This document shows, one piece after another, positions 6,090-60,475 of a stretch of 64,000 bases of DNA; the stretch's first letter is position 1, and the number at the start of each line of letters is the position of its first letter. The notes under the pieces were generated by a model. It searched no databases. It was not told where the DNA came from and saw only the letters and a program-made list of their open reading frames with translations. The stretch lies in the sequence record PQ374922.1; one strand, 5' to 3'. The position numbers and the translations under genes are program-made. The stretch is from a phage.

Positions 6090-9008
6090 ATGTCAAAGCT
6101 AAGTTTCCTCCAGTTCATGCAGGAAAGAGATCAGTTGGACGAAGCGTTCAACTCCGCTCCGTATGAGCTGACCATGGGCAAGAAGAACGCAGGCGATGTG
6201 TTCTTCACCTTCATCGACGAAGATGAAAAGGAATACCGTATTCAGTTCTATACCCCTCAGGGGCTGGGTAAGAGTGTTCGTCAGGTTTTCATCGGCCAGA
6301 AGCGCGGCTCCGTCTATCCTGACGCCATCGCTCGCTTCAAGAACCCAATGCGCGTTATCGCTTCCATGATCGAAGCGACCAAACAATTCATGGCGACTCC
6401 TCTGGGCAAGACCATCGATGGCTTTGCTGTCAACTTCTCTAAGAAAGCCCTGGATCGCGGTATGACCCTGATTCCTAAGATCATCCGCCAGTCCGGCCTG
6501 AAGCAGAAACTGAACGTCATGGACCTGACCTACGCGCCTGTTCCTGACCGTGGTTATGTGTGGCTAGTTCGTAAGGGTAAAGATCCGGCTCAGGTATTCG
6601 ACGGTCCGAAGATGCAGGGTATCACCTGGGATGATCCAGACAAAGTCGGTGACGTTCCGGTTCAGAACAATACTCCGGATGTGGGAGTTGGGGCTGGTTC
6701 TTCTGAAATCGAAGTCAACCGCGAGTGGTACAACAGCTCGGACACTGGTCTGGAGTTGAAGAGCGGGCGAGACCCGATTCGTGGAAATTACGTCCGTCTG
6801 ATAAGCGGTTCGAAAGAAGTAGCCACATTCTATGGTTATGATTTTGACAAATATCCAGACGGGACTGAGGTATCTTGGAATATGAAGCGCGGCTTCACCA
6901 ACCAAGACTTGGTCGGTGCGTCCATGACCAAACAGAAGAAAGGTATGTACGATCAGTACACTTTCAAGAAAGGTACTCAGATAATTCTGGTGGTGGACGT
7001 TGACACCAGCAATGACACCAGCAATGACACCAGCAATGGCAACGGATGGAAATTAACTTCAAACGGGGATCAGCCCATGTTGTTATGGGCTGGTAAGGAG
7101 AGAGGCCGCACGAACACGGCAAATATCGCTCCCCACTACAATGAGCCGGGCGTGTATGTTGGCGCATACATGAATGAGAAACCTGTGCGTGGGCAAAGTG
7201 CTGATTTCATTGCTCGTCAGTTGAAATTACCGCAAGTCCCTATCAATATCCTGAATGATTTCACCATGGCGTCTACAAAATTTTGGAAAGGTTCTCAAAA
7301 CAGTTCAGACAGAAATAACCCAGCCAACATTATCGGTTCTGGAACTGCTGTTATTGATGCCAAACGACTTGGTGCTCGAGAAGTAAACGTTGAACGATTC
7401 AAAAACGGTGTTCGCATGCGTTCTCAAAACGGTGACGTCGACATCAGTATTTCTGACCCAGACTTTTCAAATGCAGCAAGTGCGACTGATGCTGCTACTG
7501 CCTCTGTTGTGGTCAAGAACGGGCGTTACGAAGGTGCCATCAATTCAAAGCGCAAGATTGCCCGCACCTCGTACGAGCAGGGTACTGAATGGGATATCAT
7601 CGGTGTCAACGGGGAAACCCTTGTCTCTATCAAGTTGAACAAAGTGTCTAAATCCGCATCGGATTCGACCGAGGGTGCAACCAGTGTTGATCAATTACGT
7701 GACAGTGGTTTCATCGCTCGTGTTCTGGGTATCATTGATACCAACGTTGGGCTGGACACTTCTATTCTTCCTGGTGAAAACATCCGTCGCGTGGGCGCTG
7801 GTCGTTACACGACGGCAGGCGGGTTGGTTATCGTTGTCAACTTCACAAACGTCCTCGCTGGTTTCGTTCAATACTCAGTTTTCAGCGAAATTGCTGAAGA
7901 GGAGAACGTGGCCAAAGGTAGCGCCCGTGACGTCGCCAATGCGGTAATTGCGTCCATCTTTGAGGTTGCCAAGACCCAGTACACTGGGAAATGGGAAATT
8001 AGCGCAGTGCCAACAAGCGCTCCATATCCTATCAAAGCCATTCGCCGTTCTCGGGGCTGGGGTTATGTGGAAACCGCAAACTGGACTCTGACAGTGTCCG
8101 ACGCTGTCCTGAATCGTGTGAAGCCAGGGAAAACTGCCCTACTGGAACTCATCAAAGAACCTCCGCGTGGCAAGCACCCGCTGGAAATCATCCCAGAGAA
8201 GGGCGACAAGACCCTGATGCTGAAAGATCGTATTACCGGGGCCATCTATGGTTCTATCGACCTGAATGCCCAAGGCGCTGATCTGGTCAACTCTGGAACC
8301 CTGAAGATGCCACGCAACGCCATGGTGTTTGGTGAGACTGTCAACGGTATGTCCATTCGGTGGGATGTCAATTTCCCCGAAACGGGAAAATACGCCGGTG
8401 CTTCTATGATAACCAACGTGACCTATTACTACGACAAAGGTAAAGTTGCATTCACCCCAATTGTCTCTCAGAAAGGGCGTACCCTGAACAATCCGAAGAC
8501 ATATGAACTTCCTTTAAACAAAGATATGGTCCAGAGTGTGATTGATGAGATTTCATCAAAAATGGAATATCTTTCCAGAAACCTCCAACAGTTGAAAAGT
8601 CAGTCATACAACCCAAACCAGGTGTTCTTGAACGATATAACCATCACGGATAAAGGTGAAGTGATTTGGAATGATTACAACTTGTCTGACGGCAAAGTTA
8701 CACAAATTATGCTGTCCATGATAAGCGCAGAAAATAAACGTCTAGAGAAAGTGGCAAACAAGCCGGATATCAATATCACATTGCCAAAGAAACAAGCTGA
8801 AGTGATAGAATTTATAAACCGGATGATCGACATTGATCTCACCCCTTATGTGAGAACCCCCAAAAAACGTGATGTGGTATTATTTGACTCTTCTGAATTG
8901 TCGATGAACCAACTCAACAACATAGAACGCCTGGGAAGAGAAACAGGAAAATGGTCTCTTCAGTCAAACGGCGGTATGGGTCATGCACTATTTCTGAATG
9001 TTTGGTGA
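6090..9008 (+). CDS. large hypothetical protein (972 aa) with internal (DTSN)x3 repeat
   Basis: Uninterrupted 2.9-kb ORF with good SD (AGGAG) upstream; flanked by hairpins; no catalytic motif recognised; 3-prime third is AT-richer than the rest. Confidence 0.65.
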   Translation: MSKLSFLQFMQERDQLDEAFNSAPYELTMGKKNAGDVFFTFIDEDEKEYRIQFYTPQGLGKSVRQVFIGQKRGSVYPDAIARFKNPMRVIASMIEATKQFMATPLGKTIDGFAVNFSKKALDRGMTLIPKIIRQSGLKQKLNVMDLTYAPVPDRGYVWLVRKGKDPAQVFDGPKMQGITWDDPDKVGDVPVQNNTPDVGVGAGSSEIEVNREWYNSSDTGLELKSGRDPIRGNYVRLISGSKEVATFYGYDFDKYPDGTEVSWNMKRGFTNQDLVGASMTKQKKGMYDQYTFKKGTQIILVVDVDTSNDTSNDTSNGNGWKLTSNGDQPMLLWAGKERGRTNTANIAPHYNEPGVYVGAYMNEKPVRGQSADFIARQLKLPQVPINILNDFTMASTKFWKGSQNSSDRNNPANIIGSGTAVIDAKRLGAREVNVERFKNGVRMRSQNGDVDISISDPDFSNAASATDAATASVVVKNGRYEGAINSKRKIARTSYEQGTEWDIIGVNGETLVSIKLNKVSKSASDSTEGATSVDQLRDSGFIARVLGIIDTNVGLDTSILPGENIRRVGAGRYTTAGGLVIVVNFTNVLAGFVQYSVFSEIAEEENVAKGSARDVANAVIASIFEVAKTQYTGKWEISAVPTSAPYPIKAIRRSRGWGYVETANWTLTVSDAVLNRVKPGKTALLELIKEPPRGKHPLEIIPEKGDKTLMLKDRITGAIYGSIDLNAQGADLVNSGTLKMPRNAMVFGETVNGMSIRWDVNFPETGKYAGASMITNVTYYYDKGKVAFTPIVSQKGRTLNNPKTYELPLNKDMVQSVIDEISSKMEYLSRNLQQLKSQSYNPNQVFLNDITITDKGEVIWNDYNLSDGKVTQIMLSMISAENKRLEKVANKPDINITLPKKQAEVIEFINRMIDIDLTPYVRTPKKRDVVLFDSSELSMNQLNNIERLGRETGKWSLQSNGGMGHALFLNVW
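7002..7037 (+). repeat. in-frame tandem repeat (GACACCAGCAAT)x3 encoding (DTSN)x3
   Basis: Three perfect 12-nt units inside the 972-aa ORF. Confidence 0.9.
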
Positions 9009-52109: not shown

Positions 52110-52402
52110 TGATCATCTTCATCAGGGAATATACGCCATCGACCTATTCCATACCACTCACCGATAGAGTTCCATGTCCTTTCCCCAGGCCAGCCACCGA
52201 CCGTGTAGTAATGCGCCACCAGCCGCCAGTAAGGAAGAGAGGCCGTGTTCACGCCGCCGTCGGCCTTTAGGCAGGCCAAGTACCAATTCGTGAGACTGAA
52301 CGCCTGAAATAACGGATGAAGGAACATGAAGTACAGGTAGCCCAATATGGCTGCGAACACCCCAGCTGTTACGATCACACCGATGACAGTGAATACAATC
52401 AT
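52100..52402 (-). CDS. small membrane protein
   Basis: 100 aa; N-terminal TM helix MIVFTVIGVIVTAGVFAAILGYLYF. Confidence 0.45.
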   Translation of the reverse strand: MIVFTVIGVIVTAGVFAAILGYLYFMFLHPLFQAFSLTNWYLACLKADGGVNTASLPYWRLVAHYYTVGGWPGERTWNSIGEWYGIGRWRIFPDEDDQAP

Positions 52403-53031
52403 CCCACAACCTCCAGCCCCATCAGATCTTCCATGGTCTTCTGAATACGCAGCCAGTCAAGCGCAGCGTCATAACGAGGGTCGTGATAGACCATACCTTC
52501 CAGTTCCCACGCCTTGATGCCAGCATACCGATCCTGCTGTCCAACACCCTTCAGCCAACTCACGATGTCGAAGGTGTGGTGGTAGTCCCAAGGCTCGTTG
52601 GAGTCCTGCTTACACGTCACCTCAATGATGTGCTGAGCCTTGCGCAGATCGAACAAGTTACGGTCACACCAGTCAACCGAGCGCGGGTCTACCCCAAGAA
52701 GATGACAACCCTTGCGGATTTCATCGGCCAGCTGGAAGATAGAGATGTCATCTTCCTTGGGATACAGACTGACGGCGCGAGCCGCATCACACGGGTTACG
52801 TTTACCCGTGCCCAGCCACCATTCTACCGTCCCCTGGTCCTTCACGCGACCGAGTTCGATCTGTTCTTTGACATTCAGCTTAATGAACGTCGTGCGCTCC
52901 TCAACCAGCTGCTGAAGAGTATAACGCTTGGTCAGGTCGGCGATGGTGTGTGCCCAAGACAGCATGACTGCATCATCCCAGCGCCCCAGGGTTTCGCTGT
53001 CGGCAACTGCAAGGAAATTAGACTTGTACAT
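52399..53031 (-). CDS. dexA: 3-prime to 5-prime exonuclease, DexA-like (DEDDh family)
   Basis: LAVADSETLG (T4 DexA IIDFETMG), EWW block and C-terminal YHDPRYDA (T4 HDSIHDCA), all from memory of T4 DexA. Confidence 0.75.
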   Translation of the reverse strand: MYKSNFLAVADSETLGRWDDAVMLSWAHTIADLTKRYTLQQLVEERTTFIKLNVKEQIELGRVKDQGTVEWWLGTGKRNPCDAARAVSLYPKEDDISIFQLADEIRKGCHLLGVDPRSVDWCDRNLFDLRKAQHIIEVTCKQDSNEPWDYHHTFDIVSWLKGVGQQDRYAGIKAWELEGMVYHDPRYDAALDWLRIQKTMEDLMGLEVVG

Positions 53032-53920: not shown

Positions 53921-54331
53921 TCAATAGAGGTCTTCGGAAAAGAGTTCGCGGAAAGGGGTTGTCTTCAGGCGCACCTGATTGATCTGTCCAGCTTCACGGG
54001 CTACGATGCATGCCTCTTCACGAGTGAGGAAGTTGCCCTGGTTGTCGATGAATCCCTGTTCGCGGGTATGGATGGATTTAATGACGCCTGCTTCTTTCAG
54101 GATCTTGAGCTGGCTGTTCATGAATTTGCTATGGTGACGGTCGGCAACGACGATCACGTCACCATATTTGTTGGCGGCAGCGACCACACGGCGCTCCCAG
54201 GCACCTTCGACAGGAAGTTCACGAGTGTACAATGGAATCATCGTATCGCCGATGTCATCCCCTTTCACCTGTGAGAACAACTTGCCTTCAGTGCCCGTTG
54301 GGAGTTCACGAAAATATCCCAGTAATTTCAT
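53921..54331 (-). CDS. hypothetical protein
   Basis: 136 aa; no confident motif. Confidence 0.45.
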   Translation of the reverse strand: MKLLGYFRELPTGTEGKLFSQVKGDDIGDTMIPLYTRELPVEGAWERRVVAAANKYGDVIVVADRHHSKFMNSQLKILKEAGVIKSIHTREQGFIDNQGNFLTREEACIVAREAGQINQVRLKTTPFRELFSEDLY

Positions 54332-56308: not shown

Positions 56309-58219
56309 TTATTCATCCTCAGTTTCAAACAGGCAAACATCGCTAAACCAGGTTTTGCGGTAATCGGCGGCCTCATCACCGAAGCCATTCTTCAGTGACT
56401 GTTGGTAGCCATCGTCCAGCGTGACCGTCGTAGTATACGCATCCAGGTTGTTTAGAATACGTTTGAAGTCTTCAGTGCTGTTACCACCAAGACCTTTCAG
56501 ATATTTCTTCTTCGTGATCTTCTTGGCATCAGGCGTCTTCAGGAACTCCTCATACTCGGCGTTGTTCATGAACTCATGCATCACCTTACCACACCACACA
56601 CGCATGTAAGGGGTGCGCAGGAGCTTCAGCCTGCCCTGACGGACATACTCCGGCCAGTAGGTGCAATACAGGGTGATCAACAACCCACGGATGTGGATGC
56701 CGTCATCGTCCGCATCGGTAGCCACAACAGTCTGTGGGTAACGGGTGATATCAAGGGGCTGGCCTGGCACTGCGCCGCCATGGATCGTACACAGGTTCTT
56801 GAACTCTTCATTGTTCATCACCTTTGAGCGCGGAGCGTTCAGGCAGTTGATGAACTTACCACGAAGCGGGAACAACCCGATCTTCTTGGTGTCGCGGGCG
56901 TTCAGGATAGGATTGGAGGCACTATCACCCTCTGTCAGCAACAGGGAGCATCCGCTGCGGTCACCACGGGCGGTCGCCGGGTAATACTTCTCAATCTCAC
57001 GATAATCTCGCTTGCTGATGTCCTTCTTGGCCTTTTCAAACTCAGCATCATCCTGCTCATTGCGCAGGGAAGCCAGTTCTTTGCTCAGACCAGCCGTAAC
57101 GAACTCAAGCGCCTTGCGGATCAGTTTATCACTGGGCTTGTACGACGTACCGAACTGGCTGACAGGAGTGGTCATGCGCTCCTTGGTCTGGCTGTCAAAG
57201 CGCGGGTTGTTGATGTCGGCGGCGATGAACAAGGACATGTGGTTCTTGATCATTGCTGGCTTCAGTTCGGTCTTGAACTTCTTCACCAGCTGGGGACGAA
57301 TCGCTGCCACGATCTGGTCAGCAACATAATCAACGTGAGGACCACCGATGTGGGTGGCAATAGAGTTCACGTATGATGCGTGCATGAACGTACCGGATGA
57401 AGGGGCTACAGCAACAGACCAATCCCCGGTTTCGTCAACAGCCGAACCAGCATGGAAGTAATCAACGAAGTGGCCAAAGCGGTCAATCCGGATTTGCTTC
57501 CCGTTGAGAACAATCTTCAGGCGCGGGTTACACGCAGCCACTTCAAACGCGCGGCGATAGATCATCAGAAGGTTGTTCTGGTCAAGCCCTTTGACGCCCA
57601 GACGAGCATAGTCAGGGATCCAGGCGATGGATGTGCCAGGACTGTTCACGTTGCTGATGACTGGGTTAGATTTCTTGCTCATGTTGTCTTCAAACGTCTG
57701 AGTATAAGACTTCTTGCCGTCATTAGTCGTGACGCGAAACCATTTGGAGAACACGTTGACGAGGGACGCCCCTTCGCCATTCTGACCACCGGACTTCTGG
57801 TTGTTGTACTCTTCGTCTTCGTCGTTGAAGTTCGATCCCGCATATAGAGAGCCGAACAACATTTCAGGAAGCCACTCGTTGGTGACGCCATGCTTGACCA
57901 CAGGGATACCCCCGTTGTCAGCAACGATGATTTGACCGTTCATCGGGGAAACTGTGACGGTGATTTCCGTCAGGGATTTGCCCTCAGGGGTCTTGCTGTG
58001 GTCAACACAGTTGGTGATGATTTCATCAAACTGTTTGATCAGCGCGGGGGAATACTCAAAGTTGTCACGGAAGATGACTTTGTCCTTAGTTGGGTCATAC
58101 ACCCACACCGTCCCCACAGACGAACGAATACTGCCCAGATGACGCTCTGGGCGGAGTAGGATATGCTCAACGTGAGTGAGCTTCTTGTACTTGCGTTCAA
58201 TATCAATTTTGTTGGACAT
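56309..58219 (-). CDS. 39: DNA topoisomerase II large subunit (GyrB-like ATPase plus TOPRIM; gp39+gp60 equivalent, contiguous)
   Basis: 636 aa; N-terminal GHKL ATPase region (YKKLTHVEHILLRPE...), TOPRIM-like LLLTEGDSA; single uninterrupted ORF. Confidence 0.88.
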   Translation of the reverse strand: MSNKIDIERKYKKLTHVEHILLRPERHLGSIRSSVGTVWVYDPTKDKVIFRDNFEYSPALIKQFDEIITNCVDHSKTPEGKSLTEITVTVSPMNGQIIVADNGGIPVVKHGVTNEWLPEMLFGSLYAGSNFNDEDEEYNNQKSGGQNGEGASLVNVFSKWFRVTTNDGKKSYTQTFEDNMSKKSNPVISNVNSPGTSIAWIPDYARLGVKGLDQNNLLMIYRRAFEVAACNPRLKIVLNGKQIRIDRFGHFVDYFHAGSAVDETGDWSVAVAPSSGTFMHASYVNSIATHIGGPHVDYVADQIVAAIRPQLVKKFKTELKPAMIKNHMSLFIAADINNPRFDSQTKERMTTPVSQFGTSYKPSDKLIRKALEFVTAGLSKELASLRNEQDDAEFEKAKKDISKRDYREIEKYYPATARGDRSGCSLLLTEGDSASNPILNARDTKKIGLFPLRGKFINCLNAPRSKVMNNEEFKNLCTIHGGAVPGQPLDITRYPQTVVATDADDDGIHIRGLLITLYCTYWPEYVRQGRLKLLRTPYMRVWCGKVMHEFMNNAEYEEFLKTPDAKKITKKKYLKGLGGNSTEDFKRILNNLDAYTTTVTLDDGYQQSLKNGFGDEAADYRKTWFSDVCLFETEDE

Positions 58220-58268
58220 CGGCCTATCCCGTCAATGGTAAACACACAAGATTATGTATGGGGTCGGC

Positions 58269-58850
58269 TTATAGACCAAATTTGCTACGCCACTTTTCAA
58301 CCTTGTGTTCAATAGCGTGCTCCACTTTAATGCGAGTGGCCATCAAAGAGGATCCACGGATCGCCCCTTCCCCACACCCCATGCGCGCAACATGCTTGAT
58401 TAGGTCATTGACGAGTTGATCCAATCTGTCTTGACTGCGATAAGGCTGGTTGCACAATCGGATAATCCGGCCATGATAATGATGGATAAGATTCAGATGC
58501 TTTTGAGGATCACGATCAATCAGACGGAACCAGTCTTCTTCCAACAGATTAGAAGAAATATCGTTCACTGTCGCCATGTGGTTGATGACAGAGTCGATCA
58601 TTTCGACCTTGTTCAGAGAGCCGCGCATTTGGACGTCGTCATAATCCATGACGTACAGAAGGTCAATAGCAGAGATAATGACATCAGCAACTTCGCCATT
58701 CAACGGCTCGGAAGATACTATGCCATGAAACACATCAGACAGTTCACAGATCTCTTCACCTAGTTTGTTCAGAACAAACACAGGCGAACGGTCTGGGGTA
58801 TGAGCAGTGCAGTCATAAGAAGTGTCGACGATAGTGTGTAGAAATTTCAT
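58269..58850 (-). CDS. MazG-like nucleotide pyrophosphohydrolase domain protein (putative)
   Basis: LGEEICELSDVF ... GEVADVIISAIDL fits EExxE...E..D pattern of MazG/all-alpha NTP-PPases; 193 aa. Confidence 0.45.
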   Translation of the reverse strand: MKFLHTIVDTSYDCTAHTPDRSPVFVLNKLGEEICELSDVFHGIVSSEPLNGEVADVIISAIDLLYVMDYDDVQMRGSLNKVEMIDSVINHMATVNDISSNLLEEDWFRLIDRDPQKHLNLIHHYHGRIIRLCNQPYRSQDRLDQLVNDLIKHVARMGCGEGAIRGSSLMATRIKVEHAIEHKVEKWRSKFGL

Positions 58851-59335
58851 TTCAAAGTTCCTTGTATGCGGAGACGATTAATGTGGGCAATGATATAGTC
58901 CATAGAGTTTTGAAAACTGTATTTCCCGTTCTGAACATATGCATGGATCAGGGGTAGGCGACTGTACGCCAATCTGATCTTCAGACGTTCAGGCATTGTC
59001 TGGAGTTTCATACTAGTTGCAAATAGGATATCGCGCTTGAATTCTTCGGTAGACGGGTCCAGGACAATGACGCGGGAAGCCGCCAATCCCTGTCCATATT
59101 GCTTGGCCTCATAACCGTCGAGCAGGCGCAGGTTGTCATCCCTATACTTCAGCCAATACCAGTACCCCTCCATGGAGTTAAACACACCATGTTCATGGGT
59201 AGTCATTGGATGATGGGTAAAATGCGAGAGGAAGCGCCCGAGTTCCGTCTGGCTCCGGCTGTAGATGTTGAAGTGATTCTTACCCTCTGTTGCAGGGGTC
59301 ATCTTGTTCTGTGGAACGCTCATTAACAGCATCAT
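58847..59335 (-). CDS. NADAR (YbiA-like) domain protein (putative)
   Basis: HFNIYS ... LGRFLSHF ... P ... SMEGYWYWLKY parallels remembered E. coli YbiA INFYS ... GDFSNF ... P ... TSEHYFQAQKF; start at ATG 59335 with conserved leader. Confidence 0.4.
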   Translation of the reverse strand: MMLLMSVPQNKMTPATEGKNHFNIYSRSQTELGRFLSHFTHHPMTTHEHGVFNSMEGYWYWLKYRDDNLRLLDGYEAKQYGQGLAASRVIVLDPSTEEFKRDILFATSMKLQTMPERLKIRLAYSRLPLIHAYVQNGKYSFQNSMDYIIAHINRLRIQGTLK

Positions 59336-59351
59336 GATGTAGTTTCTCAAA

Positions 59352-59573
59352 TCAAAGTATTGCTGTGTGCAGCCAGTTTATTTCTTCACACCCCAAATAG
59401 GAGCAGAGTAAACCGACAACAGAAAATATAATGGCAAGAAGGTAACGAGTCACCTGCATTTGTGGTGTTGTAAGCAGGCCGATAACGCTTTCGAGCGCCA
59501 GGAACAAACACACCCCAGCGATTACACCGAATTTGAACGAATTACGTTCTCTGTTAATTCTGAACTTGTACAT
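59352..59573 (-). CDS. small membrane protein (two predicted TM helices)
   Basis: 73 aa; FGVIAGVCLFLALESVIGLL and YLLAIIFSVVGLLCSYL. Confidence 0.45.
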   Translation of the reverse strand: MYKFRINRERNSFKFGVIAGVCLFLALESVIGLLTTPQMQVTRYLLAIIFSVVGLLCSYLGCEEINWLHTAIL

Positions 59574-59622
59574 TGCGCACCTCCTGTTAGGGAAATAGGG
59601 GAGTTTCCTCCCCTGTAACTAT

Positions 59623-60168
59623 CTAGCCCAGAAACACTACTAAAGTCAAATTAGTGAGGGCGCTGCGGCCTTCCCGCAGCATTTCATGCGCAGATGCAAG
59701 GCGCTTGGGGTCATGCAATGTATCAGAGAACACGATGATGTTTGCTTTATCGATGCCCGTGCCCATGTAATGGGAGATGGTTGTCGTGTGCTGTTTCTTG
59801 TCTACATCGGGCAATGATACATCCGCGCCTGCTCGGGAGCGGAAGAAAGAATCGCGTTCACTAACGCTATGGAAGACTCCCATGATGTTGAGGTTGTTCT
59901 CTGTCTGGAAATCATAGGACAGAATCTTCTTCAGCGCGGCGGTGTGCCCAGTCTGGCGCAGCATGCGATAGTACAGTATGTTTCCAGGACAGGTGGGGTC
60001 CGTCACACCTCCCCTCGATTGGCGATCTTTCTGGATTTCATACGCATCCAGGATAAGTTGTTGGACCATTTCAATATGGGCAGTCAGGGAGATTTCGACT
60101 TTACGTTTGACCATGGATTTCATTTGGTGTATCCTCAGATAGGTTCCGCTCATGGGGAACGGTTCCAT
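59623..60168 (-). CDS. hypothetical protein
   Basis: 181 aa (start could be a downstream Met); follows bidirectional terminator. Confidence 0.45.
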   Translation of the reverse strand: MEPFPMSGTYLRIHQMKSMVKRKVEISLTAHIEMVQQLILDAYEIQKDRQSRGGVTDPTCPGNILYYRMLRQTGHTAALKKILSYDFQTENNLNIMGVFHSVSERDSFFRSRAGADVSLPDVDKKQHTTTISHYMGTGIDKANIIVFSDTLHDPKRLASAHEMLREGRSALTNLTLVVFLG

Positions 60169-60190
60169 TATACACCAAATGCTGGAAATG

Positions 60191-60216
60191 AAAAAGAGGC
60201 CGGAGCCTCTTTTGTT
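60191..60216 (-). terminator. intrinsic terminator (bidirectional hairpin)
   Basis: AGAGGC-CGGA-GCCTCT flanked by A5 and T-rich tracts; shares GAGGCCGGAGCCTC with terminator at 62406. Confidence 0.55.
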
Positions 60217-60241
60217 AACCCATGATCATCGCGTTCATGGC

Positions 60242-60475
60242 TCATTCCTCTTCATATTTGCCTGTCCTGAAGTTCCACTTTCGCGCATTCTTCAGGTCGA
60301 GGTCTTTGAAGATGTTTCCAAAGATCTTTTGGAAGGAGGTCTGCTCTTGTTCTTCCTCAAGATCCTTGGGCTTCTTGACAGGCTCTTTCACCATACCGCC
60401 TTCGGGTTTCCCCACATCGGCGGTCGTGGTTCCAGGGGCTGCTGAGTCTTCAAGGAAGTCCTGGAAGCCTTTCAT
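60242..60475 (-). CDS. hypothetical protein
   Basis: ATG at 60475 directly after upstream stop; 77 aa acidic/Lys-rich. Confidence 0.4.
   Translation of the reverse strand: MKGFQDFLEDSAAPGTTTADVGKPEGGMVKEPVKKPKDLEEEQEQTSFQKIFGNIFKDLDLKNARKWNFRTGKYEEE

Follow-up and report, generated by a model that had tools for sequence, protein, structure and literature searches.

Does the open reading frame (ORF) at 58847..59335 of the phage sequence record PQ374922.1, of which a stretch of 64,000 nucleotides was analysed (the window), encode an enzyme of the NADAR fold and, if so, from what would that enzyme remove ADP-ribose? A reading made from the letters alone (the sequence-only reading) had compared three short blocks in the ORF product with the core of E. 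coli YbiA, had noted a MazG-like neighbour at 58269..58850, and had coupled the gene with a Macro-domain gene about 5 kb away in a scheme in which the phage carries two erasers for different ADP-ribosylated bases. Fold, profile and residue evidence together confirm the NADAR (YbiA-like) assignment: the ORF encodes a NADAR-fold protein of the His-type, gp30.3/AdfN-like branch, in which the characteristic residues can be mapped.

The blocks FNIYS, GRFLSHF and SMEGYWYWLKY are present in the product in that order. Standard annotation passes the protein by. At E values up to 10 it matched no Pfam model, PF08719 (gathering score 35.1 bits) and PF08010 (gathering score 36 bits) included, and the same was true when 26 homologues were scanned one by one; searches of NCBIfam, of PADLOC and, with phmmer, of the PDB using the single sequence returned nothing; and its sole match was PHROG 652, a family of ‘unknown function’. 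With no curated model matching, membership of the NADAR fold therefore rests on profile-profile and structural evidence; the profiles came from an 88-sequence alignment of the window NADAR family (A2) and a 45-sequence alignment of the T4 gp30.3 family (A4). A profile built from 26 sequences found no NADAR in the PDB, and only the broader A2 profile did so, matching the NADAR chain 8bau at E 5e-4 in a search of the whole database. The earlier assignment is thus supported by searches with the family profile, and not by those with the single sequence. In profile-profile comparisons with hhalign, A2 matched YbiA with 92.5% probability and A4 with 97.5% (E 6.8e-12 over 143 columns, essentially the full length), while reciprocal hidden Markov model (HMM) cross-searches between the window and gp30.3 families scored 38 and 33.5 bits. 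Sub-threshold matches to PF08010 (Phage_30_3) were seen for 17 of the 88 A2 members (best E 1.3e-4) and to PF08719 (NADAR) for four, and the family domain in the fused protein P0123 scored 27 bits against PF08010. The window family is a sister family of gp30.3 that lies outside PF08010 as Pfam delimits it. The ORF begins with ATG, an in-frame TTG upstream at 59350 would add five residues, and its homologues measure 160-162 aa.

Characterised NADARs provide a guide to the active site. In PnNADAR the distal ribose is gripped by E43 and by E125, while K50, R79, W89 and R93 touch ADP-ribose; in the E. coli C7 NADAR, K95 and D171 are needed for hydrolysis, E88Q is inactive and E88A has only a minor effect (PMC11543638); and in T4 AdfN the E36A and K43A changes impair function (PMC11825919). 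The E125 position, in the last strand, tells the subfamilies apart: members of the YbiA family have Glu there, those of the DarT1-linked BC4488 family have Asp, and phage gp30.3 proteins have His (PMC11125620; also PMC11543638 and PMC11825919). The counterparts in the window protein are Glu56, Lys63 and His131 (Table 1). Glu56 is invariant in A2 (88/88) and position 131 is His in all but one member (87/88), directly preceding strand 132-135, the first strand of the C-terminal beta-hairpin in the predicted model; Lys63 is shared by the window protein and the majority of its Ackermannviridae relatives. Of the NADAR catalytic residues, whose absence the sequence-only reading had named as grounds for rejection, E56 and K63 are therefore in place, and a histidine stands where YbiA-type proteins have Glu. 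The window protein shares with T4 gp30.3/AdfN (PF08010) its stand-alone format (phage proteins of about 150-160 aa), the NADAR fold, the Glu, the Lys at Glu+7 and the His at the subfamily-defining position. Unlike gp30.3, its family is marked by a distinctive helix, E-G-Y-W-Y-W-L, and by the strand L-P-L-x-H-Y-Y, does not keep the Lys throughout, and has its members in Ackermannviridae, among many jumbo phages and in phages of Vibrio and Erwinia, not in T4-like phages. E. coli YbiA itself (2b3w; PF08719, NADAR/DUF1768) is only 14% identical and has a C-terminal E-x-D-x-x-W-G where the window family has its L-P-L-x-H-Y-Y.

These residues also bear on whether the protein might be a housekeeping YbiA-like N-glycosidase that attacks intermediates of the riboflavin pathway, or might lack catalysis and serve as an ADP-ribose binder or as a structural protein, either of which we regard as very improbable. 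YbiA-type NADARs do hydrolyse riboflavin intermediates (cited in PMC11125620 and PMC9503650), and one homologue is labelled ‘virion structural protein’ (in PQ306799; the GenBank label is otherwise ‘hypothetical protein’). However, the YbiA-type Glu is replaced by His, the invariance of Glu and His speaks for a catalytic role, the neighbourhood contains no riboflavin genes, and the structural label comes without evidence in its record, the matching PHROG being of unknown function. On these grounds, both the riboflavin-pathway and the structural role were rejected.

Table 1 Features of the NADAR locus and of the Macro-domain gene in the window
Feature	Coordinates	Strand	Remarks
Stand-alone NADAR-fold coding sequence, 162 aa	58847..59335	-	Phage His-type, gp30.3/AdfN-like branch
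Codon GAG, Glu56	59168..59170	-	T4 AdfN E36, YbiA E48, PnNADAR E43 (distal-ribose contact); from hhalign to YbiA and T4
Codon AAG, Lys63 (Glu+7)	59147..59149	-	T4 AdfN K43, YbiA K55, PnNADAR K50 (phosphate contact); hhalign register
Codon for Gln82	59090..59092	-	PnNADAR R79 position, counted along the 8bau alignment
Codon CAT, His131	58943..58945	-	T4 gp30.3 H123; PnNADAR E125 position via T4 H123; unaligned to YbiA
All-alpha nucleoside triphosphate (NTP) pyrophosphohydrolase coding sequence, 193 aa	58269..58850	-	Start overlaps the NADAR stop codon
Stand-alone macrodomain coding sequence, 204 aa	53032..53646	-	DarG/TARG1-like clade
DexA/Rv2179c-like 3'-5' exonuclease	52399..53031	-	phrog_255, 1.7e-52; flanks the macro gene
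Conserved 136-aa protein	53921..54331	-	phrog_839 (function unknown); other flank of the macro gene, past an 80-aa ORF

What such a protein might do during infection is suggested by its characterised relatives. T4 gene 30.3, renamed adfN, is sufficient to overcome DarTG1, and its product strips ADP-ribose from DarT1-modified DNA in vitro; divergent NADARs from phages of the T5-like (Bas32) and Vequintavirinae (Bas60) groups likewise neutralise DarT1, so that sensitive phages plate again; and none of these three counters DarTG2, which modifies thymidine (PMC11825919). All NADARs tested hydrolyse ADP-ribosylated guanosine (guanosine-ADPr) and leave thymidine-ADPr intact (PMC11125620, PMC11543638, PMC11833690), and all NADAR types tested do so both on DNA (PMC11125620) and on RNA (PMC11833690). 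Because of the homology to these enzymes, a guanine-ADPr glycohydrolase that counters DarT1-type toxins appears the most likely function, and we consider it probable, though well short of certain, that the window protein is an ADP-ribosyl N-glycohydrolase serving as an orphan antitoxin against DarTG1. Its substrate and activity would be those of its relatives, and the anti-DarT1 role we infer on good grounds and with moderate confidence. Under such a mechanism, the ADP-ribose moiety would be bound via Glu56 at the distal ribose and Lys63 at the diphosphate, His131 would substitute for the Glu or Asp of other NADARs, and the bond between ribose C1'' and guanine N2 would be cleaved in ADP-ribosylated single-stranded DNA and possibly in RNA, so that marks set on replicating phage DNA by a host DarT1-type toxin would be erased.

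Parallels to such an orphan are AdfN-Bas32 and AdfN-Bas60, which, like the window protein, are phage-borne orphan NADARs outside T4-like phages, and which establish that divergent phage NADARs can neutralise DarT1 (PMC11825919). They reportedly cluster with archaeal and with non-YbiA bacterial NADARs and are detectable by DELTA-BLAST against conserved domains (PMC11825919). No rV5-like E. coli phage was among the matches listed for a tblastn search with a Vequintavirinae (Henunavirus) homologue. The DarG1/BC4488-type antitoxins (E. coli C7; Geobacter lovleyi, 8bat) differ in several respects: they have Asp (D171 in E. coli C7) where the window protein has His, they are encoded beside darT1 and not as an orphan gene in a lytic phage, and their extensions beyond the core are not the same (219 aa in the target against 162 aa here).

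Several observations weigh against a role as an anti-DarT1 eraser. Against the gp30.3-family HMM the window protein reaches no more than 16 bits, which is why Pfam misses it, and against the Pfam NADAR model it gives nothing; it is thus a distant NADAR relative whose specificity may have shifted. The spatial clustering of E56, K63 and H131 is inferred from alignment. The lysine that is essential in the E. coli C7 NADAR (K95) has a basic equivalent (K/R at position 63) in just 10 of the 88 A2 members. T4 AdfN is fully effective only in T-even phages, implying that the behaviour of the family can depend on context, and Iyer et al. have argued for soluble derivatives of ADP-ribose, and not DNA adducts, as the substrates of most phage NADARs (2022, PMC9503650). 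Finally, one phage-like metagenome contig (ERZ27256589 k141_476089) harbours both a canonical PF08719 NADAR gene (L006 1..441) and a His-type family member (8001..8429), about 7.5 kb apart, an arrangement which suggests non-redundant roles and is compatible with divergent specificities.

The loss of the lysine has a counterpart elsewhere in the alignment. At position 82, the R of an A-K-x-x-G-R motif, R or K is present in 66 of the 78 members without a basic residue at 63. In the window protein, as in most Ackermannviridae relatives, K63 is combined with a non-basic residue at 82 (Q82 in the window), while most other members pair R82 with a non-basic 63, and across the 88 members basic residues at the two positions show an anticorrelation (counts 2/8/66/12; Fisher p 6.6e-5, with no correction for phylogeny). 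This pattern looks like an exchange between two phosphate-binding basic residues, corresponding to K50 and R79 of PnNADAR. The Lys63 and Arg82 variants provide a natural series for dissecting how NADARs bind ADP-ribose.

A shift in specificity might also have redirected the enzyme towards another nucleic-acid adduct, such as ADP-ribosyl-cytidine or ADP-ribosylated mRNA or tRNA, left by an ADP-ribosyltransferase toxin other than DarT1. NADARs are able to reverse guanosine-ADPr on RNA as well (PMC11833690), a 2026 paper reports the reversal of cytidine ADP-ribosylation by NADARs (PMC12945103), and the exchange of Glu/Asp for His (an idea put forward for the His swap in PMC11825919), together with the distinctive WYW helix, could mean an altered specificity. 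The nearest characterised relative, however, acts on DarT1-modified DNA; we therefore rate this alternative as quite unlikely, and place it next after the soluble-signal possibility considered below among the main alternatives.

The distribution and domain architecture of the family bear on that possibility. An exhaustive HMM search yielded 1838 cluster representatives at E <= 1e-3, so that the family is large, comprising at least 1838 clusters at 50% identity. It was found in 576 phage records, including Ackermannviridae of Salmonella, Escherichia, Klebsiella, Dickeya, Erwinia and Serratia, jumbo phages such as 121Q, PBECO4 and Munch, and Vibrio and Erwinia phages, and its members are annotated as ‘hypothetical’ in every record listed. 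YbiA-like NADARs form a separate set of 704 phage records, chiefly from Staphylococcus, Streptomyces, Listeria and Bacillus phages. In metagenomic sequences the family domain is fused to Macro, DUF4326, SLOG/YpsA and calcineurin-like phosphoesterase domains and even to a canonical NADAR; the same combinations have been reported for viral and phage ADP-ribose-processing proteins (PMC9503650). The fusion polyproteins P0123, P0141, P0160, P0072, P0055 and P0105 reach up to 1415 aa.

These data raise the principal rival explanation, namely that the protein is a genuine NADAR-fold hydrolase of a soluble molecule derived from NAD+ or ADP-ribose (for example an isomer of cyclic ADP-ribose, or some other immune signal or toxin), quenching host signalling of a Thoeris-like or similar kind in place of repairing DNA. 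This is the main role proposed by Iyer et al. for phage NADAR, Macro, SLOG and Nudix domains (2022, PMC9503650), the fusions with SLOG/YpsA, DUF4326 and Macro are of the architecture that these authors tie to small ADP-ribose derivatives, the lysine of DNA-acting NADARs is gone from most family members, and one contig carries a family member together with a canonical NADAR. On the other hand, guanosine-ADPr on nucleic acids has proved a substrate of every NADAR assayed biochemically so far, the His-type enzyme of T4 among them (PMC11125620, PMC11833690, PMC11825919), degradation of an immune signal has been shown for none, the window protein retains the lysine, and its gene is located among DNA-metabolism genes. 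We consider this explanation rather unlikely. It is likewise unlikely, if a shade less so, that the His-type, WYW-helix family, most of which lacks the canonical lysine, forms a functionally distinct NADAR clade whose substrate would be something other than DarT1-modified guanine, for instance a soluble immune signal derived from ADP-ribose, or a different base adduct. If that were the case, Ackermannviridae would carry a multi-part ADP-ribose counter-defence set, consisting of the NADAR and a lysine-less DarG-like macrodomain.

On the reading that we favour, the protein is a credible and ordinary addition to a known anti-defence family; it represents no new kind of system and is unsurprising after the 2025 AdfN paper, but is of use for annotation and for work on phage defence. 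That phage NADARs serve as orphan antitoxins against DarT1 marks on phage DNA was shown only in 2024-2025, for T4-like, T5-like and Vequintavirinae phages, and the list of candidates now extends to Ackermannviridae, which are widely used for the biocontrol of Salmonella and E. coli, and to many jumbo, Vibrio and Erwinia phages; phages with a NADAR of the window family would be predicted to resist DarTG1. The gene escapes the Pfam, NCBIfam and PADLOC models, and the A2 profile could serve to annotate at least 576 phage genomes. Iyer et al. found NADAR domains in 27% of myoviruses using sensitive profiles, and their survey may already include the window family (PMC9503650); no paper found in the literature searched describes an Ackermannviridae NADAR by name.

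The region from 57800 to 60300 shares 99% identity with Escherichia phage YX22, Enterobacter phage fGh-Ecl02 and Escherichia phage AV101, and about 200 more Ackermannviridae genomes match it at 80-95% identity; the near relative PQ306799 is classified in its record as Ackermannviridae, Aglimvirinae, Agtrevirus. All on the minus strand, the genes run in the order rIIA/rIIB ... histone-like protein, small membrane protein, NADAR candidate, ‘MazG-like’ protein, topoisomerase II large and small subunits ... macro protein, exonuclease, and the block around the NADAR gene is one of DNA-metabolism genes (histone-like protein, topoisomerase II, exonuclease). No darT1 ADP-ribosyltransferase gene adjoins the NADAR gene, the neighbours being those for the small membrane protein, the histone-like protein, the dUTPase-like protein described below and topoisomerase II, and PADLOC matched neither 58847..59335 nor 58269..58850. 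The NADAR gene is therefore an orphan, like that of AdfN. Scans for promoters and terminators around the genes performed no better than on shuffled sequence (7 versus 5.0 and 7 versus 4.1).

The neighbour at 58269..58850 belongs, as the sequence-only reading had it, with the all-alpha NTP pyrophosphohydrolases, although its product is closer to dimeric dUTPases than to minimal MazG. It possesses the four-helix all-alpha core and the E-x-x-E ... E-x-x-D metal-binding cluster of the MazG/all-alpha NTP pyrophosphatase superfamily, is 8-15% identical to dimeric dUTPases (C. jejuni 1w2y, staphylococcal phage 5myd) and to MazG/MazZ, and matches no Pfam model, those for dimeric dUTPase and MazG included. 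Several records label its homologue ‘viral tegument-like protein’. In the records viewed, neither this label nor ‘virion structural protein’ carries evidence, and the database labels for both ORFs (records PQ306799, MT074479 and OQ660437) are inconsistent and probably wrong.

The dUTPase-like gene adjoins the NADAR gene throughout the Ackermannviridae examined. A 4-nt overlap (ATGA) between the NADAR stop codon and its start suggests co-expression, and translation of the NADAR is probably coupled to that of the downstream dimeric-dUTPase-like NTP pyrophosphatase. In Vibrio phage K382, Erwinia phage Kaldavass, phage 121Q and Erwinia phage pEp_SNUABM_01, no annotated pyrophosphatase lies beside the NADAR homologue, as judged from annotation only, with no A3-profile search. 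On this evidence from the annotation of four distant phages, a conserved NADAR and dUTPase-like module was rejected, and the pair is therefore not treated here as one ADP-ribose module. In ViI-like phages, part of the thymidine is replaced by hypermodified bases derived from 5-hydroxymethyldeoxyuridine (PMC5889632, PMC8989533); a pyrophosphatase directed at dUTP or dTTP would fit such thymidine hypermodification, and the dUTPase-like protein is read here as a putative nucleotide-pool enzyme, not as a component of the eraser. In several relatives (PQ306799, vB_EcoM-RPN242, PH4 and ChubbyThor), a gene for an HNH homing endonuclease (L001 8401..9231) lies between the dUTPase-like gene and that for the topoisomerase II large subunit; the window has no such insert between 58219 and 58269, where the intergenic gap is about 50 bp.

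The Macro-domain gene is the second half of the proposed pair of erasers. Its product matches the NCBIfam model antitoxin_DarG (E 4.5e-8, in the macro part only), PADLOC DarG (4.9e-7) and, under the cut-off, Pfam Macro (0.011). Viral contigs yielded just four further loci for its alignment, three of them near-identical. As a small profile it retrieved from the PDB the macrodomain 7omu (2.8e-4), the M. tuberculosis DarG macrodomain 5m3i (3e-4), human TARG1 (7.5e-4) and also T. aquaticus DarG, in a range extending up to 0.012. In the HMMER alignments, the positions of DarG K80 and TARG1 K84 (FPTKKHW, ITKKRAS) fall on an invariant, lysine-free LYTQFYPGPNAR, so that the catalytic lysine seems to be missing and hydrolysis of thymidine-ADPr by the macro protein is doubtful; its role may be confined to binding ADP-ribose, or it may act by another mechanism. 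Of the idea of two erasers for different bases, the matches support the part that the phage carries relatives of both DarG types, while the activity of the second is called into question by the lysine-free stretch. In related records, homologues of the macro protein are labelled ‘Tk.4 protein’, ‘phosphatase’ or ‘ADP-ribose binding protein’. In Vibrio phage K382, Erwinia phage Kaldavass and phage 121Q, too, an exonuclease gene lies no more than about 4 kb from the NADAR homologue.
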